A stretch of DNA of 41,679 nucleotides from Actinomycetota bacterium. GTDB taxonomy: Bacteria; Acidobacteriota; Terriglobia; Terriglobales; Acidobacteriaceae. Under the pieces are notes generated by a model that was not told the origin of the DNA, did not search any database, and saw only the letters and a list, made by a program, of their open reading frames with translations. The translations under genes and the position numbers were made by a program. How positions within the stretch are numbered: position 1 is the first letter of the stretch; each line of letters begins with the position of its first letter. The DNA is taken from assembly GCA_050258305.1 (NCBI GenBank), contig JBLMYN010000552.1, positions 1 through 41,679 of the forward strand. The letters run 5' to 3'. This document shows, piece by piece, positions 8,260 through 34,761 of the stretch.

Positions 8260-8268
8260 CAGCCGGAC

Positions 8269-8733
8269 CTAGTCTTCTTCCGGGTCTGAATCGTCAATCA
8301 GGATACCGTCGTAATCGTCCGCGGCGTCTTCCAGTCGTTGAAAAGATTCGTACCACTCCGTGGAGATTTCGTACGTGAAGATGACTCCCTGGCAGGGAAA
8401 GCCGAGCTGAATCAGCCCGACCTTGCCGACAAAGTCACGCAGCCAGCGGGCCTCTTCCACATCTTCCTCGCTCATGTACTCGATTTCCTGCAGCCGGTTG
8501 AGGAGCAGATCAACGTCTTCCTTCTCGAGTTCCACAAAACTCATGGTGACAAAGCTAACGCCGGAGGCTTTGGCCAGTTCGACAAAGTCCTTCCATCCGT
8601 CAGGATGGTCTTCATCGATCGCCCATGCCACTGTGGGAACATCCTCGCCTACGTACGCATTGAACCTGCGCAGGCCGTGGCCCTCAATAAAGGCGATCAT
8701 GTCATCTCTTACACTGTGAAGGTCGTGTTCCAT
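8269..8733 (-). CDS. Hypothetical, strongly acidic cytoplasmic protein
   Basis: 154-aa ORF packed between the kinase gene and recJ, with a 9-nt gap to recJ. No family recognised. By my count it has about 40 D/E against about 11 K/R. The tail reads DDYDGILIDDSDPEED. Confidence 0.6.
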   Translation of the reverse strand: MEHDLHSVRDDMIAFIEGHGLRRFNAYVGEDVPTVAWAIDEDHPDGWKDFVELAKASGVSFVTMSFVELEKEDVDLLLNRLQEIEYMSEEDVEEARWLRDFVGKVGLIQLGFPCQGVIFTYEISTEWYESFQRLEDAADDYDGILIDDSDPEED

Positions 8734-8773
8734 TCTGTGATAGAGACATCATATCGCGTTCCAGCGCCGGGGA

Positions 8774-9787: not shown

Positions 9788-9796
9788 CTTCTGCTG

Positions 9797-10180
9797 TTAA
9801 AGTCGCGTAGCAAGAGCGTTGATTTCGTAAATGAGATCGGCCAGGGAATCTTCCCTGCCGCCGCCGCGCAGGCGAAATGAAAAATCATCTTCCCGAATTG
9901 CCGCCACCATGTTGGAAAGGGTCTGGAGTGGGCGGATGAGCTGGCTGTGCAAAGCTGACGATCCGATCATCCACGCCAGGGCAATAAACAGCGTGATGGT
10001 CCACTTGAATTCCACGGAGTGACCGCTCAGCCAGAGGAGAATTTCGGCCACCAGAATGCCCGGGGCGCTGATCAGCAGTGTCATCAGCGTGATGCGAGCA
10101 TCAAAGTTCAGCCGGCTTCGTCTCGGCGGTCCGTGAGACAGTGAGACGGAGCTGAACGGATGCAGCGGGTCAGAGGCCAT
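9797..10180 (-). CDS. Sensor histidine kinase, TM-HAMP portion (N-terminal fragment)
   Basis: Two TM helices followed by a HAMP-like segment (LIRPLQTLSNMVAAIREDDFSFRL...LADLIYEINALATRL). It ends at a TAA. Its ATG overlaps the regulator stop by 11 nt. Confidence 0.7.
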   Translation of the reverse strand: MASDPLHPFSSVSLSHGPPRRSRLNFDARITLMTLLISAPGILVAEILLWLSGHSVEFKWTITLFIALAWMIGSSALHSQLIRPLQTLSNMVAAIREDDFSFRLRGGGREDSLADLIYEINALATRL

Positions 10181-12487: not shown

Positions 12488-14929
12488 TCATTCGCAGCGC
12501 AACGCTACCATCGGATCCACTCTAGCCGCCCTGCGCGCAGGAATGTAGCATGCACACACAGCAACTCCGATCAGAACCGCTGCAGTGATGGCATATGTGA
12601 GAGGATCCACGGTCTTTACTCCAAACACGAAACTTTTCATCAGGCGTGACAGCGCCGCAGCCGCTCCCAACCCAATCACCACACCAAATCCAGCCAGAGC
12701 CAATCCCTGCCGGATAATCATATGCAATACATCTGCGACCTGCGCGCCCAAGGCCATACGAATGCCGATTTCGCGGGTCCGCGCGCTCACCGTGTATGCG
12801 AGGACCCCATACTGCCCGATCGCAGCAAGCCCGAGCGCCAATGCGGAAAAAACGACGAACAGCCACATGTGAAACCGACGATCCTGGAACGTGCTCTCGA
12901 CCACCTGCTGCATAGGACGAATCTCACTTACCGGAACGTCTTCATCCACTGCAGCAACCTGTTCCCGCAGTGGTTTCATAAGCAGCTTGAGATCTCCGGC
13001 TGTACGCACGATCAAGAACAGATTTTGCGGCGCGCCAATGCGATACACAGTCGCTGTAGGAGGCGCGTCCAGACCCAAGTCGTGCGTATCCTGAGCGATG
13101 CCGATGACCGTGTAAGCACCGTCACCTGTTGTACCTGTGATAATTTTCTTTCCCAGGGGATCCTTCCGCGGCCAGAGCGCCTTTGCCATCATTTCACTCA
13201 TCACGATGACCCGGCTCTTTGGTCCCAGGTCCTGCCGGCGAAAACCACGTCCTTTCACAATTGGAATACCCATCGTTCTAAAGTAGTCATCACGCACGCT
13301 GGTCATGTCAGCGCTACGTTGGTCCGCGTCCGATTGTCCTTCCAGATGAAACGTTGATAATTCAATCGTGCGCATCGGCAGGGAGCCTGAAATAGTTGCC
13401 GACTCTACGCCCGGCAGAGCGCGTACGCGCGCCAGCAGCTCATTCGAGAAGCTGGAAAGCTTCCCGTCATCGCCATTCTTCGGGTCAATTCTGTATTTAT
13501 CCGGAGGGAGTTGAATAACCGCGGTCAGCAGATGTTGCGGCTGAAAACCCGGATCGACGCCATGCACCGCCCGCAGAGTTCTGATGAGCAGGCCCGCTCC
13601 CACCAGTAACACCAGCGCAAGAGACAACTCGGCAATCACAAGAGCGGACCGCGTCCTGTTCCCCTGCCCGCTTACTGATCTTCCCGTCTGAGCCAGCGCA
13701 TCCTGGATTTTTTGCCGTAAACTGTGCAGGGCCGGAGCCAGGCCGAACAAGATGCTCGTAATGATTGTGGCTGCTATGGTGAAAACAAGGACACGGGGAT
13801 CGATCGACGGCCGGTGCCCTTCAAGAAAATCTCCCGGCGCAATAGCAATGACCAGGACGACGAACCATTGAGCCAGCAGCAGGCCGGCAATGCTGCCGAG
13901 GGTGCCGAGTGTCAGGCTTTCAGCCAGCATCTGGGCCAGGATGCGAGCCCGTGAGGCGCCAAGCGCCAGCCGCACCGCCAGCTCCTTTCTTCTTTCTGTG
14001 GCACGGGCCAGCAGCAGATTGGCTATGTTCACGCACGCAATCAACAAAATGAAGCCAACGGCTACCTGGAAAATCAACAACCGCCTGATTGAATCCGGGT
14101 TCCGATCTTCTGATCGTAACGCGAGAACAGCGACTCCGGTTACAGGAGTCAAACCCGGCATATCCTCTTTTTCAAATTGCCGGGCGATCACGGCAACATC
14201 GGAGCGAGCCTGATCCAAAGTGAAGTCCGGCTTGAGGCGGGCTAAAACATTTACAAATGACCCGGGCTTGCCCGCGGCTGCAGCAGAGGTATCAAGGGGC
14301 AGCAACAGCTCAGGGTTGAGCCGCATTTCTCCCGACATGAGGTTGGGCATGCGGAAGTCCTGCGGCAGAACTCCCACCACCACATGAGCTACTCCATCTA
14401 AAGTGAGTGACTTGCCGACGGCAGCTCTCACAGAACCAAAATGTTCTACTGCGTAACCAGCGGTAAGGACGGTGACATTGTTCCGCCCCGGGGTGGTTTC
14501 ATCAGCCGAAAAATTACGCCCTGCGGCTACTCTGAAACCGAGCAAATCGAGAAGGTTCGCGCTGCATTTGAGTGCCTTAATTTTCGTGGTCCCTGATGGA
14601 CCGGCCAGACGTGGCCCATACGCGTGAAAAGCAGCCACCTGTTGAAGTGTGTGGGACTGTTCCAGGATCGCCCGATAGTGCGTCAGGGGGGGAAAAAACA
14701 TACCGCCCACGTTCACCCCCATCCCCGGCCGTTTATCCCATACCGCAACAATCCTGTCAGGGTCGCGAAACGGTAAAGGCTTCAGAACGAATGCGCTGAA
14801 CACCGCGAACATGGCGGCATTGGCGCCAATGCCCAGGGCGAGGGTGATGACCGCGACCGCAGTGAACGTGGGCGCTTTGCGCAGCACGCGCATCCCGTAT
14901 CTGACATCCTGTATTAAATTCGAGAGCAA
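12488..14929 (-). CDS. ADOP family duplicated FtsX/MacB-like permease
   Basis: N-terminus LIQDVRYGMRVLRKAPTFT, two FtsX modules each preceded by a large periplasmic domain, and the C-terminal RVDPMVALRCE signature. 813 aa. Confidence 0.9.
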   Translation of the reverse strand: MLSNLIQDVRYGMRVLRKAPTFTAVAVITLALGIGANAAMFAVFSAFVLKPLPFRDPDRIVAVWDKRPGMGVNVGGMFFPPLTHYRAILEQSHTLQQVAAFHAYGPRLAGPSGTTKIKALKCSANLLDLLGFRVAAGRNFSADETTPGRNNVTVLTAGYAVEHFGSVRAAVGKSLTLDGVAHVVVGVLPQDFRMPNLMSGEMRLNPELLLPLDTSAAAAGKPGSFVNVLARLKPDFTLDQARSDVAVIARQFEKEDMPGLTPVTGVAVLALRSEDRNPDSIRRLLIFQVAVGFILLIACVNIANLLLARATERRKELAVRLALGASRARILAQMLAESLTLGTLGSIAGLLLAQWFVVLVIAIAPGDFLEGHRPSIDPRVLVFTIAATIITSILFGLAPALHSLRQKIQDALAQTGRSVSGQGNRTRSALVIAELSLALVLLVGAGLLIRTLRAVHGVDPGFQPQHLLTAVIQLPPDKYRIDPKNGDDGKLSSFSNELLARVRALPGVESATISGSLPMRTIELSTFHLEGQSDADQRSADMTSVRDDYFRTMGIPIVKGRGFRRQDLGPKSRVIVMSEMMAKALWPRKDPLGKKIITGTTGDGAYTVIGIAQDTHDLGLDAPPTATVYRIGAPQNLFLIVRTAGDLKLLMKPLREQVAAVDEDVPVSEIRPMQQVVESTFQDRRFHMWLFVVFSALALGLAAIGQYGVLAYTVSARTREIGIRMALGAQVADVLHMIIRQGLALAGFGVVIGLGAAAALSRLMKSFVFGVKTVDPLTYAITAAVLIGVAVCACYIPARRAARVDPMVALRCE

Positions 14930-14947
14930 GTTGTCTTTCCTCCAGGC

Positions 14948-17458
14948 TTACTCATACCTTAGGGCCACCATCGGGTCCACCTTCGTTGCGCGCCTGGCGG
15001 GAACAAGCCCGGCCAGTGTAGCGATGCCGCCCAGCACCGCGATCACCGTAAGCATCGAGAGCGGGTCCGCCGGGCTCAGGCCAAAAAGCATGGAACTGAA
15101 TATGCGGCTGGACAGAAGAGCCACTGGAACGCCAACCGCAATCCCAATGAGCACTAGTTTCAACGCCTCGTGCAGAACCATCCCGAGGACCTGGTTTCGT
15201 TGCGCCCCCAACGCCATGCGAACGCCGATCTCACGGGTGCGGCGACTGACCGTGTAGGACATGACGCCGTAGAGGCCGACGCACGCCAGTGCCAGCGCCA
15301 GGAACCCAAACAAGGTAGAGAGACGCGCCACCAGAATATCCCTGGAAATAGAGGAATTAACCAGCTCGTCCAGCGTCCGGACCCGGCTCACCGGCACATT
15401 CGCGTCCAGTGCAGCAATCGTTTTCCGCACCGGCTCGATAAGATCCTGAGGCCTGCCGGCGGTCTGAATCTCAAAGTTGATCGCGTAGAGGGAGTCCAGC
15501 GCCTGCGCTGCGGGAATGTAAAAGCGCCGCCGCACAGGTCCTCGCAAACTATGATCACGCACGTCGCGCGCGACTCCGACAATCTCAATCGGCTTCTCCT
15601 TGTTCCCCTGATCATCCATCCACATCTTGCGGCCAATCGGATTGGAGTTCCCGAAATAGAATTTCGCCATGCTCTCATTCACCACGGCAACTTTCGCAGA
15701 CGTGGCGGTATCCTGCGGGCCAAATTCACGCCCCACCAGAACCGGAATACCAAGAGCGTGAAAGTAATTTTCGCCGACCTGGTCCCAATACACCACCCGG
15801 TCCCGGTCACGCGCGGCCGTGTAACCCTCAATCTTCATGGTGTCTGCCGACTCGGTACCGCTGAACAGGCCATTCTCAGACGCGGTTACACTGCGCACGC
15901 CAGGAAGAGACGCCAGCCGCGCGCGCATCTCGCGTTCATAGCCGGCCAGTTGAGCGGGCTTGTATCCGGCGGCCACAGGGTCAACCCGGGCCATCAGAAT
16001 GCGGTCCCGGCTGTACCCGAGATCAAGGTTTTTCAGGTTTGCAAGACTGCGTACGAGCAACCCGGCCGCAAATAAGACCAGGAGGCAGACTGCAACCTGC
16101 GCCGCGACCAGAATCTTGCCCAGGGGAAACCGTCCAGGGCCGGCTTGCGATGTAGTGCTCTCCTTAAGGGTGGGTGCAACCGCCACGTTCGCGGAACGCA
16201 AAGCCGGAACCAACCCAAAGAGCAATCCGGTCAAAACGCACACGCAAGCGGTGAAGGCCAGAACGCGCCAATCCGGCGTGACCGGCAATCCCTCAGCGAC
16301 ACGAGCACTCACACTCAACCTCAACAGCCCGACCGCCCCCCAACGCGCCACGAGCAGTCCGGCGAGACCGCCCGCAATGGCAAGTAACAGGCTTTCGGTA
16401 AGCAGTTGCCGGATCAATCGTGCTGGGCTGGCGCCAATGGCCAGTCGAACCGCGATCTCACGCTGGCGCGAACTGGCCCTCGCCAGCAGCAGGTTGGCCA
16501 CATTCACGCATGCGATCAGCAAGACGAGCCCGACAATGGCCATCAACAGAACCAGCGGGTGGGAGAATTCTGCTCTCAACCCGGAGATGCCCTGCCCCCC
16601 GGCTGCAATGGATATCTTTTGTTGCTTGAGCTCCCGGAGATCACCCGGATCAATGGAGCGTCCCTGTGGCCCCTGCAGCCACTGCTGAAACAGGAGGTTC
16701 AGGTTCGCCTCCGCCTGAGGCCTGCTGATACCGGGTTTGAGCCGAGCCATCACTCGCAACCATGACGCTTGAATGTCGTCCAGCCAGGGCCTTCCGGGCA
16801 TCATCTGCGGCTGCATGGTGATGGGGATCCAGAAATCCTGCTTTTCTCCCACCGTGTCACCGAAGAATCCCGGTGCGGCGATTCCAACAATCGTGTAAGG
16901 GTACTTGTTGAGCCGGACCGTCTGGCCCACAACGGAGGGATCCTCAGCCAGCTTCCGCATCCAAAACTCGTAACTGACGACCGCGATGGGATTCCGGGAT
17001 TTGGCTGCGTCATCCTCTGCCAGTAAGGTGCGTCCGCGAAACGGCGACACTCCAAGCACGGAAAAATAGTTGCCGGTCACCAGATTGATGGTCGCATCGT
17101 CGGTTACCGCGCCAAAGGCCGGGGTTTCGACGGTAACGCGGTGTTGCTGGCCGGAGGCGATCATCCCGGAAAAGACATGATTCTTGTCGCGCAATTCGCG
17201 GTATAGCGGATAAGAATAAACATCGGTCCGTGGAGAGCCAATATTCCTGCTGTTGGCCATGGACGGGTCGCTTACAATCACCAACTGCTGCGGATCCCGA
17301 ACGGCGAGAGATTTCAGTAGAACGGCGTTAATCAGGCTGAAGATTGCGCTATTGGCTCCTATGCCCAGAGCCAGCGTGAGGACGGCCACAAGAGCAAAAC
17401 CCGGGTTCCTGAGCAGCATGCGAAAGCCGTATTGAACATCCTGTAAAAGACCCTGCAT
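14948..17458 (-). CDS. ADOP family duplicated FtsX/MacB-like permease (paralog)
   Basis: Same architecture as 12488-14929 (LLQDVQYGFRMLLRNPGF...KVDPMVALRYE). The start is placed at the ATG at 17458, preceded by GAGGAG and an 8-nt spacer. The track's GTG at 17488 is an alternative. Confidence 0.9.
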   Translation of the reverse strand: MQGLLQDVQYGFRMLLRNPGFALVAVLTLALGIGANSAIFSLINAVLLKSLAVRDPQQLVIVSDPSMANSRNIGSPRTDVYSYPLYRELRDKNHVFSGMIASGQQHRVTVETPAFGAVTDDATINLVTGNYFSVLGVSPFRGRTLLAEDDAAKSRNPIAVVSYEFWMRKLAEDPSVVGQTVRLNKYPYTIVGIAAPGFFGDTVGEKQDFWIPITMQPQMMPGRPWLDDIQASWLRVMARLKPGISRPQAEANLNLLFQQWLQGPQGRSIDPGDLRELKQQKISIAAGGQGISGLRAEFSHPLVLLMAIVGLVLLIACVNVANLLLARASSRQREIAVRLAIGASPARLIRQLLTESLLLAIAGGLAGLLVARWGAVGLLRLSVSARVAEGLPVTPDWRVLAFTACVCVLTGLLFGLVPALRSANVAVAPTLKESTTSQAGPGRFPLGKILVAAQVAVCLLVLFAAGLLVRSLANLKNLDLGYSRDRILMARVDPVAAGYKPAQLAGYEREMRARLASLPGVRSVTASENGLFSGTESADTMKIEGYTAARDRDRVVYWDQVGENYFHALGIPVLVGREFGPQDTATSAKVAVVNESMAKFYFGNSNPIGRKMWMDDQGNKEKPIEIVGVARDVRDHSLRGPVRRRFYIPAAQALDSLYAINFEIQTAGRPQDLIEPVRKTIAALDANVPVSRVRTLDELVNSSISRDILVARLSTLFGFLALALACVGLYGVMSYTVSRRTREIGVRMALGAQRNQVLGMVLHEALKLVLIGIAVGVPVALLSSRIFSSMLFGLSPADPLSMLTVIAVLGGIATLAGLVPARRATKVDPMVALRYE

Positions 17459-17539
17459 CCCCTTTACTCCTCGCTCTTCAATTGACACGAATCCCTGCCG
17501 CCTTGAGCGGTGACTGGTTTGAAGAATGCCACTATACGA

Positions 17540-25690: not shown

Positions 25691-26338
25691 GTGCGTATGA
25701 CAAACGAATATTCAAAAAGCGACCATCGCCCTCCTGTAATCCGGCCGCGCGAAGCCGGGTTCACGCTCATTGAAACCGCTCTTGTTGTTGCAATCATGAT
25801 GATTGCAGCGGCGATATCGCTATTCAGCCTTCCGCCGGCCCTTCGAGCGATGCGGATCAATTCGGCTCTGCAGATGACATTGGACACGCTGGGGCGCGCC
25901 CATGGACTGGCGTCAGCAAACCGGTGCGTCTATCAGGTTGATTTCACGCTGCCCAACCAAATCACGGTTACCCAGACGGCAACAGGAACCGTGGTTCTCC
26001 GGAACCAGTTGCCACCCGGGGTGAGCTTTGATGCCGAACCTGGCATACCATCCACGCCGGCAACAACACCCGACGGCTTCGGGTCCGGAGCCATCACGGG
26101 CGCAGTTGATTTCGATGCCGACTTTGGGTTGGGCGGAGCAACGCGAGTTTTCTTCTTGCCGGATGGAACTGCGAGGGACCAGAACGGCCATATCAACAAT
26201 GGCGTCGTTTATCTCGCACAACCGGGTGACCTGCTGAGCTCGCGCGCCGTGACCTTGTGGGGTCTTACAAGCCACTTGAAGCCTTGGCGTCTGCATTCCA
26301 ATAGCAACACGGGCGTGGCAGTCTGGGGGCAACCATGA
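25691..26338 (+). CDS. Minor pseudopilin, GspH/FimT-like
   Basis: Prepilin cleavage/methylation motif G|FTLIETALVVAIMMIAA. GspH-like body (LQMTLDTLGRAHGLA...VYQVDF). Confidence 0.8.
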   Translation: MRMTNEYSKSDHRPPVIRPREAGFTLIETALVVAIMMIAAAISLFSLPPALRAMRINSALQMTLDTLGRAHGLASANRCVYQVDFTLPNQITVTQTATGTVVLRNQLPPGVSFDAEPGIPSTPATTPDGFGSGAITGAVDFDADFGLGGATRVFFLPDGTARDQNGHINNGVVYLAQPGDLLSSRAVTLWGLTSHLKPWRLHSNSNTGVAVWGQP

Positions 26339-26889
26339 AAGACAATCGTGCACGTCGCCGAAAGTCAGCTGCGGGATTCACTTTAATGGAAGTGTTGATC
26401 GCCATTGTTGTTTTGACGATTGCGCTCATGGGCCTGCTGAGCGCCCTGGGCTTTGCCATGGCGGCCACTCACGGTTCGCAACAAGACCTGATCGCCAAGC
26501 AACTGGCCACAGAGGCGATGGAAAGCATCTTCACCGCCCGCAATACGGCGCAGGTCCAATGGCTTCAGATCCAGAATATCGGCGCGGGAACAAACCCGGA
26601 CGGCATCTTTTTAACCGGCCCACAGGCGATCAATCAGGCCGGACCTGACGGAATTCTCGGCACCGCGGACGACGCCGGTGCCGGCCCCGTGATTCTGGCT
26701 GGACCCGATGGTGTGGTCGGCACGGCGGATGACATTACGCTGAACAATTTCAGCCGTACTATTGCGATCACACCTGTAGCGAACACACCGGCGCTCCGCA
26801 CAATTAGCGTCACGATCACTTACAGTGTCCCTCCCCTTCACACGATCAAGAACTACTCGATGACAGGTTTTATTTCCCAGTACCGTTAA
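26335..26889 (+). CDS. Minor pseudopilin, GspI/PilV-like
   Basis: G|FTLMEVLIAIVVLTIALMGLL N-terminal methylation motif. ATGA overlap with the upstream gene. Confidence 0.8.
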   Translation: MKDNRARRRKSAAGFTLMEVLIAIVVLTIALMGLLSALGFAMAATHGSQQDLIAKQLATEAMESIFTARNTAQVQWLQIQNIGAGTNPDGIFLTGPQAINQAGPDGILGTADDAGAGPVILAGPDGVVGTADDITLNNFSRTIAITPVANTPALRTISVTITYSVPPLHTIKNYSMTGFISQYR

Positions 26890-26899
26890 AGGCGGTTTT

Positions 26900-28006
26900 A
26901 TGCGACTCCGGTCGAAGGCAAGTTCGGGTTTTACCCTGGTCGAATTGCTGGTGGCGATGGCGCTGAGCCTCCTGGTCCTGGGGGCCGGGCTAACCATGTT
27001 TAAGCAGGGCAACGACGTTGCAACAGTGGTTTCCGCACGAGCGCAAATGCAGCAGGACCTTCGCGCCTCTGAAAATCTCATCATTAGAGATATCAGCCTG
27101 GCAGGCGCAGGCCTTCCCAACGGCGGAGTGGGTCTTCCCATCGGAGGAGGACCGAACCCGAAATACGGATGCGATCAGACAGCCGCCTGCTATGTGCCAT
27201 TCGCAGGTGCGGGCGTCTCCAATGGCATCAACGTTCCCAATCGACAATTGACATACATAGTCCCCGGCCCTGGGCTGGGACCGAAATTGAATGGCACCCA
27301 ACCCAACAGCGATGTCGTCACTGTGGTGTATGCAGATACTGCATTCGCTCTTGATCAATACAGCGTTGCATTTAACGCAAATGCAACACAGGTTACCTTT
27401 ACCGCGCCGAACCCCTTGCCAGCACCTCCGCCACAGACGGTCGACGATCCGAGCGTCGGACTGGTTCCCGGCGATCTTGTCTTCTTCCAGAATGGAGCTG
27501 GAAAAGCCGCTATTGCTGAGGTCACAGGCGCGGTGAACCGAGTCAATACGAAGACCTTCACCGTTCCCTTTTTGAGCGGCGATGTCCTCAATTTCAATCA
27601 GCCCGGTACATCCGGAGATCTGGATGACTTCGTCGGAAGCGCCAGCCCGGCGCAGGCACGTCGAATCTGGGTAATTACGTATTACCTTTCCACCTGGACC
27701 GACGGTACCGGGAATGTCATTCCCCGCCTCATGAGACAGGTTAACGGACAACCAGCGGTCCCTGTCGCCGAGAATATCGTTGATTTTCGGCTCAGCTATG
27801 ACACCTACGATGCCAACGGCAATCTCCTGGTCAACTCCAAGGACGCCGGGGCGTCGGTTGGCGTCAGCCCCAACATGATTCGCAAAGTAAACATCCAGCA
27901 CCTTACCGCCAAAAAGCAACTCCCCCGAAGCCTGGGTTTTGAAACCATTGATCTGCAAACCCAGATCAGCGCGCGAAATATGAGTTTCAAAGACCGGTAT
28001 CAATGA
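26900..28006 (+). CDS. Minor pseudopilin, GspJ/PilW-like
   Basis: G|FTLVELLVAMALSLLVLGAGL motif. 368 aa. 4-nt overlap with the next gene. Confidence 0.8.
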   Translation: MRLRSKASSGFTLVELLVAMALSLLVLGAGLTMFKQGNDVATVVSARAQMQQDLRASENLIIRDISLAGAGLPNGGVGLPIGGGPNPKYGCDQTAACYVPFAGAGVSNGINVPNRQLTYIVPGPGLGPKLNGTQPNSDVVTVVYADTAFALDQYSVAFNANATQVTFTAPNPLPAPPPQTVDDPSVGLVPGDLVFFQNGAGKAAIAEVTGAVNRVNTKTFTVPFLSGDVLNFNQPGTSGDLDDFVGSASPAQARRIWVITYYLSTWTDGTGNVIPRLMRQVNGQPAVPVAENIVDFRLSYDTYDANGNLLVNSKDAGASVGVSPNMIRKVNIQHLTAKKQLPRSLGFETIDLQTQISARNMSFKDRYQ

Positions 28007-30807
28007 GGAGAAGTATAGCGATGAGTTGCATAGAGCACAGAAAATTCCCGCGCAAGCTAAAAGGCCTCGCCTACGCAGAACGACCTTCGGATTCCCGCGG
28101 TTACGCGCTGATCATGGTGTTATTGCTCGTTTTACTGTTGTCAGCAGTTACGCTCGGACTCTTCGTGATGGTCCAGACTGAAACTCGCGTCGGAGGCGGC
28201 GATACCCAGAACACCGTCGCATTCCATGCCGCAGAAGGAGCGGTTGAGAAGATGACCGCCGATCTGGCGACACAACTGGCAAACCGGCAGGCGCCCACCG
28301 TTGCTGACATTGCGGGGTTGAATAGCCTCAAGCCGGCAAACACTCCCGGAGTCACTTACAAAAACTATACTTTTACGCCCCAGATTGACCCCGCCACAGG
28401 AGGCCTGGTCTCAAAATTCGGTGTCATCAGCAGCGGGCCGAACGCAGGTTTGTTCGCCCAGCTGATACCCATCCAGCTCTCCGCTACGGTACAGACAGGG
28501 CTCGGGGCAGAAGCAACAGTGATGCGGAATGTTGAAATCGCGATGATTCCTGTCTTCCAGTTTGGTGTGTTTTCACAAAGCGACCTGGGATTCTTCAGCA
28601 GCCCGGACCTGACCTTTGCGGGCAGAGTTCACACCAACGGCGATCTCTATCTCGGTGTATCCAACGCAGCCACAATCGGGTTTGAGGACAAGATCAGTGC
28701 CTACGGCAACATCATCCGCGCGGTGCTTCCGAATGGCTTGTCCTCAGCAGGGAACAACAACAGTGGGCGGGTGTACGTACTTTCAGCAGCAGGAGGCTGC
28801 AATAACTTTAATCCGCTTGCACCTGGGGGGCCGAATTGCAAAACCATAGCTCTGAATGAAGGCAGCGTCGTAGGCGGTCCGAACTCGGCCCAAAATACAA
28901 ATCCTAGCTGGCTCAATACCTCGCAGGTTAAGTTCAACAGCTGGATTATTGACGGGAACAATGGCCAGCCCGGGGGAACTGGCGCCGTACAACTGACGCT
29001 TCCCTTCACCGGCACAGATCCCAACAATCCTGGAGCACAACCCGCCCAGCCGTTTGAAATCATCCGCCGCCCGCCGGCCGGAGAAGACCCAAACGGCCCA
29101 ACCGGACAGGCTCGTCTGGCCAATGAGGCCGCGATCAGGGTCCTGTTGAGCGATACGCCGCAGGAAAACCATCTGGATGGATCAGGGGTCGACGGCGAGG
29201 ACGTGCAGCTTGTGAGCCAGGTTCCTTCCAGCCTGCAAGGCTTATATACACCTCCCGGCGGAGCCACGACGTTGCAAAACGGCGTAGCTGTCGGCAGCAA
29301 TACATACTACTTCGGCGAGGCAAATACTAACTGCGGCGCTGGCAGATGCGATGCTGATTATGTCACGCCCCTGACTTATCACGGGCAAAGCGTCCCCGGA
29401 GGCACGCAGGAATGGCCAATGATCGATGGCTGGCTGCGGGTGGAATACAGGGACGCCGCGGGACTCTGGCATCCCATCACGAATGAGTGGCTGGCCCTGG
29501 GATTTTCTCGCGGAGTGACTCCCCCCGTTACAGCGGGAACGAATCAGGTAAATCCGAATGCGATCCTGGTGTTCCAGCAACAAGCCACCACAGGTCTCGC
29601 CACCAGCGGCAATGGTTCGCAGTACAACTGGCTTCCCATCAACTTCTATGATGCGCGCGAAGGAGAAATTCGAGACGCAGGCTCCTCATCGACAAGCTGC
29701 GCTCCTAATGGCGTAATGAATGCGGTTGAACTGGATGTAGGCAACCTGAGGCGCTGGTTCCAGGACCCTGCCGGTAGCGGCCCTAGCGTAGACTTTCAGA
29801 AAGAGAATGGATATATCCTCTATTTCTCTGATCGTCGCGGCATGCTGCCCAATCCCAACAATGGAAATAAAATCCAAGGTGAGTATGGCTTTGAGGACAC
29901 AATCAATGCCGCCAGCCTATCCGGCACAGTAGACGGCGTGCTGGAGCCACCCACCAGTGTGTGCCCGCCGACAAACCCGTTGTCGCGACCACCATCCCCG
30001 GAAGACGTGAACGGCAATTGTGTCCTGGACAACTATGGGGCGACAAACGTCGGGGATGCTTTTGGCATTAACACGAATACAAATCCACCGAATCCCTATT
30101 CGCCTCGCATCGGCACCTGCTCGAAGACCGGCAGGAAGAATCGGGTAACCGGAGCTCGCCACGTATTGAAGCTGGTGGATGGCACGCTGGGCAATCTTCC
30201 CACGCGTCCTGATGGTACGGGTGGTTTCACGGTCGCCGCGGAAAATCCTGTTTACATCCTTGGCGATTACAACACCAATGCCGCAGATACCACCTGGAAC
30301 AATCCTCCGGTGGAACAGGCACATGCTGCGGCGGCGATCATCGCCGACGCAGTGACGCTCTTGTCGAACAACTGGACCGACCAGAACAGCTTCACGGCGC
30401 CCGCAAGCGCCACATCGCGCCCTGCCGCAACCACGTACTACAGGACTGCGATCGCAGCGGGCAAGAACCTCACCTTCCCTGCCCCGAACTGGATCAGCGG
30501 CAACCAGTTCGCGTACGGCACGGATGGCGGAGTTCACAATTTCTTGCGTTTCCTGGAAAACTGGACAGGTCAGACTTTGAACTACAAGGGCTCAATGGTG
30601 AGTCTCTTCTATTCGACGTATGACACCGGCGTGTTCAAGTGCTGTAACAACGCCGTGTATCACCCGCCAAACCGCGTATACAAGTTCGACACGCTCTTCA
30701 CCACGCCCGAGGGGCTTCCTCCGGGTACCCCGATGTTCCGGGACGTGGATAACCTGAGTTATCGCCAGGACTTCACACCGGATGCTCAGCCGGGGCCAAC
30801 CTTCTAG
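28003..30807 (+). CDS. Very large GspK/PilX_N-like pseudopilin-associated protein
   Basis: N-terminus RGYALIMVLLLVLLLSAVTLGLFVMVQTETRVG is the PilX_N/GspK style, a hydrophobic helix without the Glu5 pilin motif. A Gly/Asn/Pro/Thr-rich extracellular region of about 870 aa follows. It is the last gene of the pseudopilin operon. Confidence 0.75.
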   Translation: MRRSIAMSCIEHRKFPRKLKGLAYAERPSDSRGYALIMVLLLVLLLSAVTLGLFVMVQTETRVGGGDTQNTVAFHAAEGAVEKMTADLATQLANRQAPTVADIAGLNSLKPANTPGVTYKNYTFTPQIDPATGGLVSKFGVISSGPNAGLFAQLIPIQLSATVQTGLGAEATVMRNVEIAMIPVFQFGVFSQSDLGFFSSPDLTFAGRVHTNGDLYLGVSNAATIGFEDKISAYGNIIRAVLPNGLSSAGNNNSGRVYVLSAAGGCNNFNPLAPGGPNCKTIALNEGSVVGGPNSAQNTNPSWLNTSQVKFNSWIIDGNNGQPGGTGAVQLTLPFTGTDPNNPGAQPAQPFEIIRRPPAGEDPNGPTGQARLANEAAIRVLLSDTPQENHLDGSGVDGEDVQLVSQVPSSLQGLYTPPGGATTLQNGVAVGSNTYYFGEANTNCGAGRCDADYVTPLTYHGQSVPGGTQEWPMIDGWLRVEYRDAAGLWHPITNEWLALGFSRGVTPPVTAGTNQVNPNAILVFQQQATTGLATSGNGSQYNWLPINFYDAREGEIRDAGSSSTSCAPNGVMNAVELDVGNLRRWFQDPAGSGPSVDFQKENGYILYFSDRRGMLPNPNNGNKIQGEYGFEDTINAASLSGTVDGVLEPPTSVCPPTNPLSRPPSPEDVNGNCVLDNYGATNVGDAFGINTNTNPPNPYSPRIGTCSKTGRKNRVTGARHVLKLVDGTLGNLPTRPDGTGGFTVAAENPVYILGDYNTNAADTTWNNPPVEQAHAAAAIIADAVTLLSNNWTDQNSFTAPASATSRPAATTYYRTAIAAGKNLTFPAPNWISGNQFAYGTDGGVHNFLRFLENWTGQTLNYKGSMVSLFYSTYDTGVFKCCNNAVYHPPNRVYKFDTLFTTPEGLPPGTPMFRDVDNLSYRQDFTPDAQPGPTF

Positions 30808-30887: not shown

Positions 30888-31850
30888 TTATTCTGCTGCC
30901 AATGCCGCTCTTGTCTGAACCATGATTGTGGCAGCGAGCACCGCGGCAATGCCGACCACCTGCACCGGGATCAGAACTTCACCCACAAAACTCACCGCAA
31001 ACAGAATCGCAAATACCGGCTCAAGGCAACTGGCGATGATCGCCCGGGTGGGATCCAGATATTTGAGCCCCGTGAAATAGAAGAAATACGGCAACAGCGT
31101 GGAGAGGCACGCGAACAGAAACAGGAAACTCCATTGCGACCCCGTGAAATGCTCGGCAATAAGGCGTCCGGGAGGGTTAAGGATGAGCCATAGCATGGAG
31201 GCTGCCAGCAACGCGTAAAACATGACTTTAAACTGATGATTCCGGCTGACCAGTGCCTGGGCGACAATGTTGTAAAACGCATACGAGAAGGAAGCAATGA
31301 TTCCGGCCAATACGCCAACGGCCTTCAGATTCAGGCCGGAGTGCAAGACATTAATAGCCAGTGCAGTTCCAAACATCGCCAACACAACCGCCGCAACGCG
31401 GCGAACAGTAAACCGATCCCGGCCCCGGAGCACCATGGTGATCAGCACCCAGACAGGAGCTGTGTATTGCAGCGTGATGGCAATTGCTACTGATGCCTTC
31501 TGGATGGATAAGTAATAGAAATAGTTCGAGCCGGCCAGGCCAAGAGTGCCGGTGAGGATGCAAAGCAGGAGATCGCGACGGGAAATACGAAAGAAAGCCG
31601 GTCCGAAGCGAAACAGCATCAGCACGGCAAGCACCGTTACTGCGAATGTTGTACGCGCTTGCGAGAGGACAAGCGGCGAGATGAGAGCGCGTCCGGCAAA
31701 AACCCGGCCGTTGAAGATGGCTTTACCAACGGTTGCGGCTGCGCCCCAACAGAAGGTGGCTGCGGCGATGTAAAAGTACCCCCGCCAGGCATGTGAAAGC
31801 CGATCGCCGCTGCGGGGGCTGGTCTGTTCTTCGGTAGCGCTAGTCGGCAA
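30888..31850 (-). CDS. DMT superfamily (EamA-like) transporter
   Basis: Ten predicted TM helices with the two EamA halves. The TTG start at 31850 overlaps the end of the glutaredoxin-like gene by 11 nt, and no upstream ATG is available. Confidence 0.85.
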   Translation of the reverse strand: MPTSATEEQTSPRSGDRLSHAWRGYFYIAAATFCWGAAATVGKAIFNGRVFAGRALISPLVLSQARTTFAVTVLAVLMLFRFGPAFFRISRRDLLLCILTGTLGLAGSNYFYYLSIQKASVAIAITLQYTAPVWVLITMVLRGRDRFTVRRVAAVVLAMFGTALAINVLHSGLNLKAVGVLAGIIASFSYAFYNIVAQALVSRNHQFKVMFYALLAASMLWLILNPPGRLIAEHFTGSQWSFLFLFACLSTLLPYFFYFTGLKYLDPTRAIIASCLEPVFAILFAVSFVGEVLIPVQVVGIAAVLAATIMVQTRAALAAE

Positions 31851-32079
31851 GCAACTGGTCCAGCCGGTCAGGATCGAATCCGATCATGACCTGGTCGCCA
31901 ACGACAATGGTGGGTGTGGAACGGCTTTTGTAGGTTCGAACCAGTTCGAAGACGGCCTGCTGGTCCATGCTGACGTCCTTTACTTCAAACGGAATCCCTT
32001 TCTCCGAAAGGTAGGCCTTGGCCCAGGAGCATGGCGGTCAACCGGGCGAGCTGTAAACTACCACTTTCTTCCCTGTCAT
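31840..32079 (-). CDS. Glutaredoxin-like (YruB-type) protein with in-frame TGA at the active site; putative selenoprotein (UPPC)
   Basis: Absent from the ORF track because TGA (32038-32040) interrupts it. Manual translation: MTGKKVVVYSSPG-[TGA]-PPCSWAKAYLSEKGIPFEVKDVSMDQQAVFELVRTYKSRSTPTIVVGDQVMIGFDPDRLDQLLAD*. It shows a full thioredoxin-fold pattern (beta1 KVVVYS, CxxC position, cis-Pro TPTIVV, GFD). RBS is AGGGGGAAAG before the ATG at 32079. Confidence 0.65.
31997..32029 (-). promoter_or_regulatory. Candidate bacterial SECIS stem-loop(s) 3' of the UGA
   Basis: The mRNA reads UGA-CCGCCAUG-CUCC-UGGGC[CAAG]GCCUA-CCUUUC-GGAG. This gives a lower stem CUCC/GGAG and an upper stem UGGGC/GCCUA with a tetraloop about 17-20 nt from the UGA. 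An alternative hairpin is CCUUU-CGGAG-AAAGG. These were folded by eye only. Confidence 0.35.
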
Positions 32080-32125
32080 CTTTCCCCCTGTGACATAAGA
32101 TTCCATTCCCCAGGCTCCAGCTTCA

Positions 32126-32569
32126 CTATTTCGCGGGCTCGGGGACGTTCGGAGCCGTGTTTTCCGCGGCCAACAAGCGAATTTCCGTAGTAATCTTCGC
32201 GGTGCTTCTGAGCATGGCCGCCACCCCGCAATATTTCTCTTCAGAAAGACGAACCGCGTCTTCGGCGGCCTTTCGCGATACGGGGCCTGAAATGTTAAAT
32301 ATCAGGTGAATGGAAGTATAGACGGTAGGTGGCTGTTGAGCACGTTCCGCCTCGGCGTATACCTCCACGGCTGTAAAAGGTTCGCGCTTTTTGTGCAGGA
32401 TCGAAACCACGTCGGTCGCGGTGCAGCCGCACAGGCCCATGAGAACGAACTCCATGGGACCGGATGCGGTATTCCGGTCACGATCGGAATCGATGACCGT
32501 TGCATGTCCACTGCTGGCGATGGCCGCAAAGCGCTCCCCGTCAATCCATTTAACTTTGGCTTCAACCAT
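32126..32569 (-). CDS. OsmC family peroxiredoxin/hydroperoxide reductase
   Basis: Conserved OsmC Cys pair (MGLCGCTATD and EKYCGVAAML). 147 aa. Confidence 0.9.
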   Translation of the reverse strand: MVEAKVKWIDGERFAAIASSGHATVIDSDRDRNTASGPMEFVLMGLCGCTATDVVSILHKKREPFTAVEVYAEAERAQQPPTVYTSIHLIFNISGPVSRKAAEDAVRLSEEKYCGVAAMLRSTAKITTEIRLLAAENTAPNVPEPAK

Positions 32570-32772
32570 AGGGCTCCAAAAACGCCATTAGAATAGCAGG
32601 ACGGCGCCGGCTGCTCGAAATCGAGATTACCACTCCCGGCCGCCTTCGTCTGAACCTGTGAACGAGCATTAGACATCGCCCTGGCAGAATTCCCAACCAA
32701 AAAAACGTGGAAGAAATCTTCAAATTCGCGCAATGGAGAATAGGAGCAAAAGCCGGAGCAGCGGGCGATACC

Positions 32773-33345
32773 ATGGCGGAATTCGTGAAGGATGACCAGG
32801 AGTTGCTCCAGCAGCTCGCCAGGGGGAACGAAAAGGCCTTCAAAGCGTTCTATGACCGCTACCAGGGCCCGATCTTCCGGTTCGCCCTGCATATGAGCGG
32901 AAACAGAGCAACAGCCGAGGAGACGACCCAGGAAGTGTTCACCCGGATCATTACAAATTCGAAGGGCTACGACGCGGCCCGGGGCTCGGTAGGCAGTTAC
33001 CTCTTTGGCATTGCGCGAAACATTACGCGGAGGGCGATTCAGGACGTCAGCGGCGAACAGGCGCTCGAAGAAGAGGCGCTGGACCAGGATGAATTTGCGG
33101 TCGCTGCCGGGTTGGACGTCCTTCAGGACCTGACCAACGGCGAACTGGTTGCAACCCTGCGGGCAGCGGTACTACGGTTGCCGCAGCAGTACCGGGAGGC
33201 TGTGGTGCTCTGCGACCTGGAAGAATTGAGTTATCAGCAGGCGGCGGAACTGCTGCAATGTTCGCCGGGAACGGTGGCATCGCGCGTACACCGCGGGCGC
33301 AAACTCCTGAAGAAAAAGCTGAGCTGTGAAAAATGCGTGAAATAG
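32773..33345 (+). CDS. ECF (sigma-70 family group 4) RNA polymerase sigma factor
   Basis: Region 2 (FKAFYDRYQGPIFRFALHMSGNRATAEETTQEVF) and region 4 HTH (LSYQQAAELLQCSPGTVASRVHRGRKLL). The start is placed at MAEFVKDDQELL. The track ORF begins 66 nt earlier. Confidence 0.9.
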   Translation: MAEFVKDDQELLQQLARGNEKAFKAFYDRYQGPIFRFALHMSGNRATAEETTQEVFTRIITNSKGYDAARGSVGSYLFGIARNITRRAIQDVSGEQALEEEALDQDEFAVAAGLDVLQDLTNGELVATLRAAVLRLPQQYREAVVLCDLEELSYQQAAELLQCSPGTVASRVHRGRKLLKKKLSCEKCVK

Positions 33346-33917
33346 ATCCAATTCGTGAGCCGTCGGAAGCTCTGCTCTCAGCCGCGCTGCGCCGCCTGGC
33401 ATCAGCCGGAGACAGCAAGGCACCCGCTGAGGTTGAAAGAGCGCTGCTGGATAGATTCCACCACCACCATCGCCGCAGGCGAGATATGAGACTGATTGCC
33501 GCGACAGCAATTGCCGCCTGCCTGATCGCCGTCGCTTTGCTGCTCAACACGCAGCCTGTCCGGGATGCTCATAAATCAGCGAAAGTGGTGGCTCAGCCGG
33601 GCAAGGGCGCGCCGGCAGAAGTTCTAGGGAGGCCCAGTGTGGCGGCAGGAAAAGCCTTGGTTCATCCCAGCCCGGCCCACCCCTGGGCAGCGCAACACGC
33701 ACGGGTCGTTGGCGAAGCGGATGGATTCGTCCCTCTTCCCAGCTACGATCCCGCCACCTCCAGCGGAGAGCTTCAAGTGGTGAGGGTTGAGCTCCCGGAG
33801 TCAGACTTGCGCATGCTGGGCGCGCCGATTGCCGGATATCTCTCGGACCAGCCTGTGACTGTCGACTTCATTGCCGACCGCGACGGTACGCCGTACGCAG
33901 TGCGGTTGGTTCAGTAA
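33333..33917 (+). CDS. Putative single-pass anti-sigma factor
   Basis: 13-nt overlap with the sigma gene. Short cytoplasmic N-terminus, an HHHHRRRR tract, one TM helix (LIAATAIAACLIAVALLL) and a periplasmic C-domain. No zf-HC2 motif, so the assignment rests on context. Confidence 0.55.
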   Translation: MREIDPIREPSEALLSAALRRLASAGDSKAPAEVERALLDRFHHHHRRRRDMRLIAATAIAACLIAVALLLNTQPVRDAHKSAKVVAQPGKGAPAEVLGRPSVAAGKALVHPSPAHPWAAQHARVVGEADGFVPLPSYDPATSSGELQVVRVELPESDLRMLGAPIAGYLSDQPVTVDFIADRDGTPYAVRLVQ

Positions 33918-33942
33918 AACGATTTGTCAAGGAGAACTGCTT

Positions 33943-34761
33943 ATGAAAATGCTGCATCTTGCCGCCGCCGGGTTCCTGGCATTCACCGGCCTGGCACTCG
34001 CTCAACAATCCCCAGCTCCTGAAGCGGGGGAGCCGGTCATCCTGATGGACGCACCAGCCCGCGGCACGTTCCTTTTTGTCGGGCGGATGGATCGCAAAGT
34101 TGTAAAAGGCGCCCCCTATAGCGCAACAGCGACAACAGAGACCACCCAGGTGCTGGCCGATGGGAACCGAATTGTGCACAAGCAGAGCGGGTTTGTTGCC
34201 CGAGACAGTGAAGGCCGCACCCGTCGCGAACAAGTCCTGGACAGAATGGGACCGCTTCAGGTGAATGGATCCAAAATGGTTTTCATTCATGATCCTGTTG
34301 CCCACGCCACCTACATGCTGAACCCTGAAAAGCAAACGGCGCGCGTGATGAAGTCGGAGGCAAAGTCGGGCATGAATATGACGCGGATGCGCGCAAGAAT
34401 GCAGAAGTTGCGGGAAGGGGTGGCCTCAAAGGAACAAGGCGAAGTAAAAACCGAATCGCTGGGCACCCAGGAAATTAACGGCATAGCCGCAGAAGGCAAG
34501 CGGGTCACACGTACCATCCCGGCCGGCGCAATCGGGAATGAACAGCCCATCCAGATCACGCTCGAAACCTGGACTTCGCCGGATTTGCAAACCGTCGTAC
34601 TGCAGAAACGCAACGATCCGCGGTTGGGCGAGACCGTGTTTCAGTTGACCAACATCAAGCAGGGTGAACCGGGTGCGTCACTCTTTCAGGTGCCGAGCGG
34701 CTACAAGCAGGTTGAAGGGCCCATGCGGATGATGATGAAGATGCACGCCCCGCCGCAGTAG
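33943..34761 (+). CDS. Secreted protein of unknown function with Met-rich motifs
   Basis: AAGGAGAA RBS and signal peptide MKMLHLAAAGFLAFTGLALAQQ. Third gene of the ECF module. It contains GMNMTRMRARM and the C-terminal MRMMMKMH. Confidence 0.7.
   Translation: MKMLHLAAAGFLAFTGLALAQQSPAPEAGEPVILMDAPARGTFLFVGRMDRKVVKGAPYSATATTETTQVLADGNRIVHKQSGFVARDSEGRTRREQVLDRMGPLQVNGSKMVFIHDPVAHATYMLNPEKQTARVMKSEAKSGMNMTRMRARMQKLREGVASKEQGEVKTESLGTQEINGIAAEGKRVTRTIPAGAIGNEQPIQITLETWTSPDLQTVVLQKRNDPRLGETVFQLTNIKQGEPGASLFQVPSGYKQVEGPMRMMMKMHAPPQ

Follow-up and report, generated by a model that had tools for sequence, protein, structure and literature searches.

A probable selenocysteine-containing glutaredoxin-like protein encoded through an in-frame TGA in soil Acidobacteriota

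The window, by which we mean the whole 41.7-kb stretch of DNA that was analysed, carries on its minus strand a frame of 79 codons that lies between the genes for an OsmC-family peroxidase and an EamA/DMT transporter, and that contains an in-frame TGA. The frame reads MTGKKVVVYSSPG up to the TGA (32040-32038), continues with PPCSWAKAYLSEKGIPFEVKDV...DQLLAD and ends at a TAG. The coordinates of this gene, which we call the redoxin gene, along with those of its neighbours and of the RNA elements described below, are listed in Table 1.

Table 1. Features of the redoxin locus (positions in the window).
Feature	Position	Strand	Basis
YruB-family glutaredoxin-like redoxin CDS, 79 residues	31840..32079	minus	sequence, translation, HMMs, 3ZIT/3ZIJ alignment, orthologs, selection
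Redoxin start (ATG) and stop (TAG)	32079-32077 (ATG); 31842-31840 (TAG)	minus	sequence
In-frame TGA, predicted Sec codon, residue 14, first position of UxxC	32038..32040	minus	ortholog column
TGC, resolving Cys C17 of U-P-P-C	32029..32031	minus	sequence; Cys in 74/74 orthologs (codon +3)
Shine-Dalgarno-like AGGGGGA, 4-10 nt 5' of ATG	32083..32089	minus	sequence; ortholog comparison
Hairpin CCUUUC-GGA-GAAAGG, 6-bp stem, putative SECIS core	31997..32011	minus	covariation, RNAalifold, bSECIS rules
Proximal helix UGGGC-CAAG-GCCUA, possible accessory SECIS part	32012..32025	minus	85% of cells paired
OsmC-family peroxidase, PF02566, 63 bits	32126..32569	minus	46 nt upstream of redoxin
EamA/DMT transporter, PF00892, 115.7 bits	30888..31850	minus	directly downstream of redoxin
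Cation-diffusion-facilitator (CDF), PF01545 + PF16916	36322..37752	minus	ancestral upstream neighbour of OsmC/redoxin

For HMM searches with the 79-aa product the TGA was scored as Cys. The product matched the Glutaredoxin model PF00462 with 59.2 bits (cutoff 22.9, E 4.5e-16) over profile positions 1-59 of 60, and the NCBIfam model TIGR02196 (GlrX_YruB) with 89.2 bits over positions 1-73 of 74, a margin of just 0.65 bits over the cutoff of 88.55. It also aligned end to end with the 78-aa CPPC redoxins 3ZIT and 3ZIJ (E 3e-14), with the TGA placed on their first Cys. It can be seen that VVVYSSPG-U-PPC of the redoxin pairs with IEVYAQPD-C-PPC of 3ZIT, that is, with an N-terminal CxxC site following strand beta-1. 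The active site reads G-U-P-P-C, the TGA sitting where homologs carry the first Cys of CPPC, and the cis-Pro region T55-P56-T57 is invariant in the ortholog alignment. As the PDB and HMM alignments run over the full length of the protein we regard its fold as settled and, on these alignments, the redoxin is a YruB-family glutaredoxin-like protein with a thioredoxin fold. The preliminary description of this DNA had recognised a glutaredoxin-like frame of 79 codons here, with TGA in place of the first active-site Cys, and both statements are borne out by these matches. It had also stated that the list of open reading frames was empty between the transporter and OsmC genes; the full-length gene is indeed missing from that list, but a 42-aa frame at 31840-31968 is entered in it.

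Two other family assignments were rejected. The NrdH redoxin model (TIGR02194) gave 47.9 bits, below its cutoff of 85.75, and there are no adjacent nrd genes. With the UXX-star selenoproteins (NF041212, NF041114 and NF041211) the redoxin shares a small Grx-like fold and a weak HMM similarity, the scores lying below the cutoffs in each case (56 bits against 66, 34.8 against 72 and 42.5 against 100, respectively). In NF041212 and its subfamilies Sec presumably stands three residues from the C-terminus, whereas that of the redoxin would be residue 14 of 79, in an N-terminal CxxC.

The arrangement of genes around the redoxin is conserved. The next gene upstream is OsmC, in the same orientation, in 60 of 70 loci, and the next one downstream is EamA in all 74 loci. 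In the window the redoxin stop and the mechanically assigned TTG start of EamA share 11 nt, and a start/stop overlap is common to all relatives. The CDF gene lies directly upstream of OsmC or of the redoxin in many relatives; in the window an ECF sigma cluster stands between them. The redoxin is probably a selenol/thiol redox partner within this conserved CDF-OsmC-redoxin-EamA cluster and, judged by gene adjacency, the most plausible role for it would be to re-reduce the adjacent OsmC peroxidase.

Orthologs were compared across the 80 closest species-level genomes, which belong to the Terriglobia and are mostly Ca. Angelobacter. We found that the codon in question is TGA in 77 of the 80, as it is in the window itself, and TGC in the remaining three, with no instance of TAA or TAG, and that TGA is kept in orthologs down to 64% protein identity. 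That so many independent species-level genomes share the in-frame TGA is far more than chance would give. Among the assemblies that carry the gene (for example CAVROV01, CAVYOH01 and CAWEDQ01), DASTAS01 contains an ortholog of 97% identity. No other disruptions are seen in the orthologs, in which the reading frame and the 13-codon spacing from ATG to TGA are conserved, and a Shine-Dalgarno-like motif stands ahead of the homologous ATG in 68 of 76 cases. Purifying selection acts on both flanks, pN/pS being 0.234 for the 12 codons 5' of the TGA and 0.237 for the 65 codons 3' of it. The preliminary description had tied its proposal to the codons that relatives carry in this column and to selection on either side, and on both counts the orthologs side with it. 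Homologs of the Cys form (P0003-P0021 and L086-L091) have CPPC at the active site.

These comparisons bear directly on whether the gene is a nonsense pseudogene, of which only the short downstream frames (42-62 aa) would matter, if any. In favour of a pseudogene, truncated products are what NCBI and the gene callers give, with 94 of the best 120 database homologs being fragments of 44-62 aa. However, a column that holds only TGA or TGC in genes that are otherwise undisrupted, together with equal pN/pS on both sides, makes this explanation untenable; the ribosome-binding site before the upstream ATG is conserved, and the downstream fragment, which has neither strand beta-1 nor any of the CxxC motif, could not form the fold. 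We attach practically no credence to it. Gene finders miss the redoxin because they take the codon of its active site for a 'stop', as the preliminary description had expected of standard callers. In one database protein (P0002) the 'W' comes from the TGA, which the source pipeline had read with a different code. A reassigned code, with TGA read as Trp or Gly, was rejected: the true terminators vary across 74 orthologs (TGA 38, TAA 19, TAG 17), and the 38 that end on TGA do so at the conserved C-terminus.

The mRNA downstream of the UGA contains a hairpin that starts 27 nt after it, with a loop (G32005 G32004 A32003) lying 32 nt from it. The GGA loop is invariant, as are G36 and G37 in the ortholog alignment, and the stem positions pair in 384 of 384 cells, compared with 43-69% in slid controls; none of 500 shuffles reached this score. 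Two stem pairs show compensatory double changes, from U-A to C-G in 23 distinct sequences and from U-A to G-C in 8. Most of the covariation cells derive from few clades, and parsimony gives about 5 independent double substitutions on a tree that leaves out the hairpin columns and is based on 189 nt only. RNAalifold recovers the identical helix (32011-31997). Searching 2.3 Mb for the hairpin motif returned 82 matches, all of which were inside these redoxin genes.

It could be argued that the hairpin is not a SECIS but an intrinsic terminator, or an attenuator, inside the gene, or that it is kept only by the amino acids encoded there, since it overlaps the conserved peptide L-S-E-K-G and since a terminator scan flags 32011-31997 plus the tail GATTCCGTTT as terminator-like. 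The same scan, however, counted 4 such sites where shuffles gave 2.9 +/- 2.1, and therefore no enrichment, and the tail is variable coding sequence with no conserved U-run, after which a further 45 codons follow under purifying selection. Likewise, an amino-acid constraint fails to explain why synonymous third positions are nearly frozen at codons +8 to +13 (variability 0.01-0.11 vs about 0.4 elsewhere), or why the compensatory changes in the stem need coupled Ser-to-Ala and Lys-to-Arg codon changes. One Cys form (L086) likewise encodes F-L-S-E-K-G, but through the non-pairing codons UUG UCU GAA AAG, and is unable to fold the hairpin. The presence of the hairpin follows TGA, being found in 78 of 78 TGA genes, and not TGC (1 of 7 distinct genes). 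We consider it very improbable that the hairpin serves another purpose than Sec insertion.

The rules for bacterial SECIS elements (bSECIS; PMC13188914, Fig. 2) specify an apical loop of 3-9 nt, a stem of 4-16 bp, a distance of 16-37 nt from UGA to loop, G in the first two loop positions, the loop pattern N1-G-[G/U]-N-N2 and an MFE <= -7.5 kcal/mol. The geometry of the hairpin, with its 6-bp stem, C-GGA-G loop and 32-nt spacing, agrees with these rules. In the window's lineage the hairpin alone is worth -4.2 kcal/mol, -5.8 with dangling ends and -7.6 in a 36-nt context, and variants that contain CG pairs reach -6.0 to -8.2 kcal/mol; the minimal hairpin of the window's lineage is weak and, without the proximal helix, its energy is marginal against the limit in this rule. 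This second helix lies directly 5' of the hairpin and has moderate support, with a closing pair that partly covaries (UA 48, GU 6, AU 4); together the two have an energy of -12.5 kcal/mol in the window.

The preliminary description had placed the start of its candidate hairpins 9-13 nt downstream of the UGA. These correspond to the proximal helix, whereas the strictly conserved hairpin starts further downstream. The folding of the single sequence that it had suggested lent no support, as the fold after the UGA is no better than that of shuffles (z = +0.9), but its expectation of a stem-loop close behind the UGA was sound, there being a covarying one within 44 nt 3' of the UGA that matches the loop, stem and spacing rules. 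The MFE helix, which pairs columns 12-15 with 36-39, was rejected as a SECIS, for its pairing in the orthologs is only 68% and is incompatible with that of the conserved hairpin.

We infer that the hairpin at 32011-31997 is a SECIS that would bind SelB, and the residue at the UGA is, from these comparisons of sequence, almost certainly Sec. Translation would start at the ATG at 32079, behind the Shine-Dalgarno site; at the UGA the hairpin, through its GGA loop, would recruit a SelB-type elongation factor carrying Sec-tRNA(Sec), and Sec would be inserted in place of termination, with the weaker proximal helix perhaps helping to position the hairpin. With TGA and TGC as the only codons in the column, equal selection on both sides and a covarying SECIS-like hairpin, the earlier proposal of a probable selenoprotein is upheld. 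We put the probability at about 0.9 that the gene is functional and that its product is a small disulfide oxidoreductase of the thioredoxin fold, with Sec, inserted by means of a hairpin in the coding sequence, as its active-site nucleophile.

Searches of the window and of 1.1 Mb of flanking DNA from its relatives, at about 20 kb for each genome, turned up no selA, selB, selD or tRNA-Sec gene, and tblastn with E. coli SelA, SelB and SelD gave no match against the window or the related loci. The window has no tRNA and matched no Rfam family, and in the 1.1 Mb of related loci ARAGORN found no tRNAs other than tRNA-Glu, tRNA-Arg and tRNA-Leu. As the searched DNA covers just 41.7 kb of the source genome and some 20 kb of each related one, the lack of sel genes in it is uninformative. 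The Terriglobia are documented users of Sec (PMC12013277; PMC1794560), and the cultured member Occallatibacter riparius has FdhA, AhpD-like and deiodinase-like selenoproteins (PMC12013277). In one acidobacterial fdhA we found that the frame contains a TGA followed by a classic SECIS, the GGUCU loop of which is 18 nt from the UGA; no sel genes are near fdh on contig L092. An FdhA search returned many acidobacterial fragments that end at the Sec codon, in clusters named only 'Acidobacteria bacterium AB60' or Occallatibacter, none of which led to Ca. Angelobacter. Scanning the window and the loci for further selenoprotein genes by motif and GC3 was noisy, and most of the 393 candidates were antisense frames.

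A potential explanation that would dispense with Sec, and that the failure to find Sec machinery in the window and related flanks would suit, is that a suppressor tRNA (for example, one of the acidobacterial allo-tRNAs, or a tRNA(Cys) that resembles tRNA(Sec)) decodes the UGA as Ser, Cys or some other residue, the hairpin acting as a read-through stimulator. Against this, TGA exchanges only with TGC (Cys) at the CxxC nucleophile, which is the classic Sec/Cys signature, and the loop and spacing of the hairpin fit the consensus for SelB-type SECIS elements. The window and the related loci yielded no allo-tRNA, and Mukai et al. report that they found no selC* genes in Acidobacteria. If plain Cys were inserted, the upkeep of a costly UGA and a hairpin across 77 species would be hard to explain. 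We judge recoding as a residue other than Sec to be quite unlikely. It is also unlikely that the UGA is decoded outside the standard SelA/SelB/tRNA(Sec) route (for example, by an acidobacterial allo-tRNA with the hairpin as stimulator), or that Sec decoding serves as a selenium-dependent switch, in which translation of EamA would be coupled, through the overlap of its start with the redoxin stop, to successful recoding of the UGA.

If the redoxin is a selenoprotein, as we favour, a systematic annotation error is corrected, the gene being either absent from databases or entered at 44-62 aa as 'glutaredoxin domain-containing protein, partial'. It would add a glutaredoxin-like selenoprotein to the Acidobacteriota, for which the literature that we found names FdhA, AhpD-like, deiodinase-like and [NiFeSe]-hydrogenase selenoproteins. 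Since the Sec codon is retained in so many of the closest species-level genomes, mostly of soil Ca. Angelobacter, a selenium requirement in this uncultured soil lineage would follow. The locus would also be a clean case, in nature, of a SECIS within coding sequence in which covariation of the stem runs through coupled amino-acid changes, and could help to train selenoprotein predictors and to extend the TIGR02196 rule so that Sec is allowed, while the understanding of selenocysteine decoding itself is unchanged.

Canonical bacterial SECIS elements are of the E. coli fdhF type and are described by the consensus model of Zhang and Gladyshev, as summarised in PMC13188914. The hairpin resembles them in being a stem-loop that lies 3' of the UGA within the coding region, with an apical loop that starts with GG and is closed by a C-G pair. 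It departs from them in its 32-nt spacing, which is near the upper limit (18 nt in the fdhA gene above), in its very small GGA loop, in the AU-rich stem seen in the window's lineage, and in the second, less conserved helix between the UGA and the hairpin.

At the level of the protein, the redoxin is like the TIGR02196 family and 3ZIT/3ZIJ ('thioredoxin', 78 aa) in that the lengths are similar, residues 4-77 are aligned, and xPPC and the TP(T) cis-Pro are conserved; they differ at the first position of the active site, which is Cys in those proteins and UGA in this clade. A glutaredoxin selenoprotein with UxxC has been verified experimentally in Clostridium sp. OhILAs / Alkaliphilus oremlandii (Kim et al. 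2011, as cited in PMC13188914), and others are catalogued from Geobacter sulfurreducens (WP_010943784.1, UPYC) and Cloacibacillus porcorum (UPWC, 81 aa) (PMC12013277 Data S1). The redoxin shares with these bacterial selenoproteins a PF00462 match, a small thioredoxin fold, a predicted Sec at the first position of UxxC and a putative SECIS in the coding sequence just downstream. It is 33% identical to each of the G. sulfurreducens and C. porcorum proteins, with U in the same alignment column, although its motif, U-P-P-C, is distinct from UPYC and UPWC. The HMMs place it in the YruB branch, and it is closer to the NrdH/BC3987 type than to GSH-dependent Grx3 (E 3e-14 with 3ZIT vs 3e-5 with the C. 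oremlandii Grx 4TR0). It differs from the known glutaredoxin selenoproteins in its occurrence in Acidobacteriota (Terriglobia), in its conserved CDF-OsmC-Grx-EamA context and in that public records do not annotate it as a selenoprotein. UxxC glutaredoxin selenoproteins are thus already known; the one described here is conserved across a group of soil acidobacteria, where it is routinely mis-annotated.

On the minus strand of the window, the frame of the redoxin, a YruB-family glutaredoxin-like gene, opens with an ATG at 32079, reads MTGKKVVVYSSPG up to a TGA (32040-32038) and then continues as PPCSWAKAYLSEKGIPFEVKDV...LDQLLAD to a TAG at 31842-31840. For this interval, which is flanked by an OsmC gene and an EamA/DMT gene, the mechanical ORF list has a single entry, an ORF of 42 aa. 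When the TGA was taken as Cys, the 79-residue product scored 59.2 bits against Pfam Glutaredoxin PF00462 (cutoff 22.9) and 89.2 bits against NCBIfam TIGR02196 (YruB family), barely above the cutoff of 88.55; it fell below the cutoffs of the NrdH and 'UXX-star' selenoprotein models. It aligned end to end with the solved 78-aa CPPC redoxins 3ZIT/3ZIJ (E 3e-14), the TGA occupying the column of their first active-site Cys. The preliminary description had proposed just such a hidden gene, with TGA at the first Cys of CPPC and missed by standard gene callers, and both points are borne out. A protein search gave 255 relatives, and the best 120 of these include 94 calls of 44-62 aa that start past the CxxC, the pattern expected if gene callers halt at an in-frame TGA; the full-length calls among the 120 are CPPC.

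It might be supposed that the gene is a nonsense pseudogene, or that only a short ORF is translated. A scan with one genome per species gave 80 orthologous loci, nearly all from Terriglobia and the majority labelled Candidatus Angelobacter. Down to 64% protein identity, the critical codon is TGA in 77 and TGC in three, and never TAA or TAG. The true terminators of the orthologues vary freely (TGA 38, TAA 19, TAG 17), so that in these genomes TGA serves as a normal stop and is recoded at the redoxin site only. Purifying selection on the flanks, which the preliminary description had proposed as a check, was found on both sides: the pooled Nei-Gojobori pN/pS came to 0.234 over the 12 codons before the TGA and to 0.237 over the 65 after it. 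Of 76 orthologues, 68 have a Shine-Dalgarno-like motif ahead of the upstream ATG. Together these observations indicate that a single protein is translated from both halves, and they exclude the pseudogene and the short ORF alike. Two database proteins differ at the Sec column. P0002 (locus L083, 650-889, JGI 3300005179) has Trp there while its DNA has TGA, the source pipeline having used another genetic code on the stop and masked the selenoprotein with a wrong residue. P0001 (locus L082, 2253-2492, GCA_037024395.1) has TTA (Leu), one base off TGA, and retains a perfect hairpin (CCUCGCGGAGCGAGG); the change reflects either an inactivating mutation of very recent date or an error in the assembly.

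Downstream of the TGA, the third bases of codons +8 to +13 are nearly frozen, with a variability of 0.01-0.11 against about 0.4 elsewhere. When 71 genes with the TGA were aligned, columns 30-35 proved to be paired with columns 39-44, the loop between them being an invariant G-G-A; lineages other than the window's carry CCUCUC-GGA-GAGAGG or CCUCGC-GGA-GCGAGG. All 384 of 384 cells form standard pairs (43-69% with slid partners), RNAalifold returned the same helix, and the covariation score was reached by none of 500 shuffles. Compensatory double changes occur at two of the pairs: U-A is replaced by C-G in 23 distinct sequences and by G-C in eight. Such changes need two codons to switch together, Ser UCG becoming Ala GCG and Lys AAA becoming Arg CGA or AGA. 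Parsimony over the TGA genes, on a neighbour-joining tree with the hairpin columns left out, gave about five independent double substitutions, a rough count as the tree comes from 189 nt only. A proximal helix starting 13 nt past the UGA, roughly at the place of the hairpins in the preliminary description (9-13 nt), has moderate support (85% of cells paired, some covariation). The window sequence folded alone does no better than shuffles, and its single-sequence MFE helix, 68% paired, is unsupported.

The conserved hairpin goes with the UGA rather than with the protein. It is present in 78 of 78 TGA genes and cannot form in six of the seven distinct Cys-form genes read (L068, L070, L072, L086, L087/88, L089 and L090/91). 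L086 encodes the same F-L-S-E-K-G via UUG UCU GAA AAG, and the hairpin forced upon it has +4.2 kcal/mol; L087 is without it despite nesting inside the window's own clade. The sole Cys-form (TGC) orthologue with an intact hairpin, L070 (3675-3734, CCUUUCGGAGAAAGG), suggests a recent Sec-to-Cys replacement. Across 2.3 Mb searched on both strands, all 82 of 82 matches to the motif lie in redoxin orthologues at the same offset. A terminator scan also flags the hairpin; terminator-like sites are no more numerous than in shuffles, and the tail that follows is variable coding sequence.

A published model of the bacterial SECIS (PMC13188914, Fig. 2) has an apical loop of 3-9 nt with G at loop positions one and two, an upper stem of 4-16 bp, 16-37 nt from UGA to loop and an MFE of <= -7.5 kcal/mol. 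With its GGA loop, whose two G are invariant, its 6-bp stem and 32 nt from UGA to loop, the redoxin hairpin agrees with the model in loop, stem and spacing. Its stability is marginal: -4.2 kcal/mol for the isolated hairpin of the window's lineage, -6.0 to -8.2 for the variants that contain CG, -7.6 within 36 nt of context and -12.5 with the adjacent proximal helix.

The window holds no tRNA and no Rfam match; SelA, SelB, SelD and tRNA-Sec were found neither there nor in 1.1 Mb of related flanks, and a search for acidobacterial SelB via fdh neighbourhoods reached none. A 2006 survey credited Acidobacteria with three selenoprotein families (PMC1794560), and Occallatibacter riparius, a cultured member of the Terriglobia, is documented to use Sec, its selenoproteins being FdhA, an AhpD-like and a deiodinase-like protein (PMC12013277). 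An acidobacterial contig, L092, encodes an FdhA (7677-10931) whose N-terminus is 87% identical to that of Occallatibacter; it reads ...ENQARI-TGA-HSASVPG... (TGA at 8244-8246), with a 7-bp stem and GGUCU loop 18 nt downstream of the TGA. These three records lend indirect support to Sec use in the lineage. Acidobacterial fdhA is likewise split at its Sec codon in public databases, into about 180 aa and about 890 aa (P0180, P0193-P0240), including the O. riparius 'hypothetical protein MOP44_01260'. An unlikely alternative is that the redoxin UGA is read by an allo-tRNA. Mukai et al. suggested that acidobacterial allo-tRNAs may serve as nonsense suppressors (PMC5389517); the strict alternation of TGA and TGC at the CxxC nucleophile and the SECIS-type loop both argue against this. 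We conclude, with a probability of about 0.9, that the redoxin is a SelB/SECIS-decoded selenoprotein, the preliminary reading of a probable selenoprotein being supported by the TGA/TGC column, selection on both sides and the covarying hairpin.

Features around the redoxin gene (forward-strand numbering)
Feature	Position	Strand	Remark
EamA/DMT gene	30888-31850	minus	flanks redoxin interval
Conserved hairpin	32011-31997	minus	CCUUUC-GGA-GAAAGG
Proximal helix	32025-32012	minus	
OsmC gene	32126-32569	minus	flanks redoxin interval
ECF sigma factor	32707-33345	+	
Probable anti-sigma	33333-33917	+	
296-aa protein	within 32707-34761	+	no Pfam match

In all 74 of 74 loci, the EamA gene lies directly 3' of the redoxin and shares its strand. 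With the mechanical TTG start at 31850, EamA overlaps the redoxin stop by 11 nt (31840-31850, minus strand), and in most relatives tblastn alignments to EamA open at this offset (6-120 nt further downstream in 19 of 76 loci), which suggests that the transporter is translationally coupled to the selenoprotein gene. OsmC is directly upstream in 60 of 70 loci, an adjacency suggesting that the UxxC redoxin would recycle the adjoining two-Cys OsmC peroxidase. A cation-diffusion-facilitator (CDF) gene precedes OsmC or the redoxin itself in many loci, directly so in many relatives, and the ECF sigma cluster (32707-34761, + strand) that separates it from OsmC in the window therefore looks like an insertion or rearrangement in this lineage. 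Contigs L016, L053, L060 and L078 bear the labels Limnocylindrales, Saccharimonadales, Verrucomicrobiia and Clostridia, yet each has an OsmC/CDF-redoxin-EamA locus of the Terriglobia type, with protein identities of 64-87%, so that mis-binning in those MAGs is probable. Beside EamA, three consecutive genes with prepilin-type N-termini GFTLIE, GFTLME and GFTLVE (25691-28006, + strand) and a following 934-aa protein with a PilX_N domain (28003-30807, + strand) have the appearance of an operon for pseudopilins or for minor pilins of a type IV pilus (25691-30807). A pair of neighbouring genes, each for about 815-845 aa and with similar N-termini (12488-17488, minus strand; ...LLQDVQYGFRMLLRNPGF / ...LIQDVRYGMRVLRKAPTF), resembles the duplicated MacB/FtsX-type permeases beside the fdhA locus of L092.

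Public records of these redoxin genes are truncated products, and the finding is useful as an annotation correction; the hairpin is a clean case of covariation in a probable SECIS within coding sequence. Understanding of selenocysteine decoding is left unchanged. Glutaredoxin selenoproteins are already known: Glutaredoxin (PF00462, UxxC) is among the experimentally verified bacterial selenoproteins (Kim et al., 2011, as cited in PMC13188914), and UxxC forms have been catalogued in Geobacter, Moorella, Alkaliphilus and Cloacibacillus. The one acidobacterium of the deep-Sep set has no Grx selenoprotein listed. The Geobacter and Cloacibacillus proteins share 33% identity with the window's redoxin and have Sec in the same column; the redoxin differs from the known UxxC glutaredoxin selenoproteins in belonging to the YruB/CPPC branch, in coming from Terriglobia, in its distal, small-loop probable SECIS and in its place in a conserved gene cluster.
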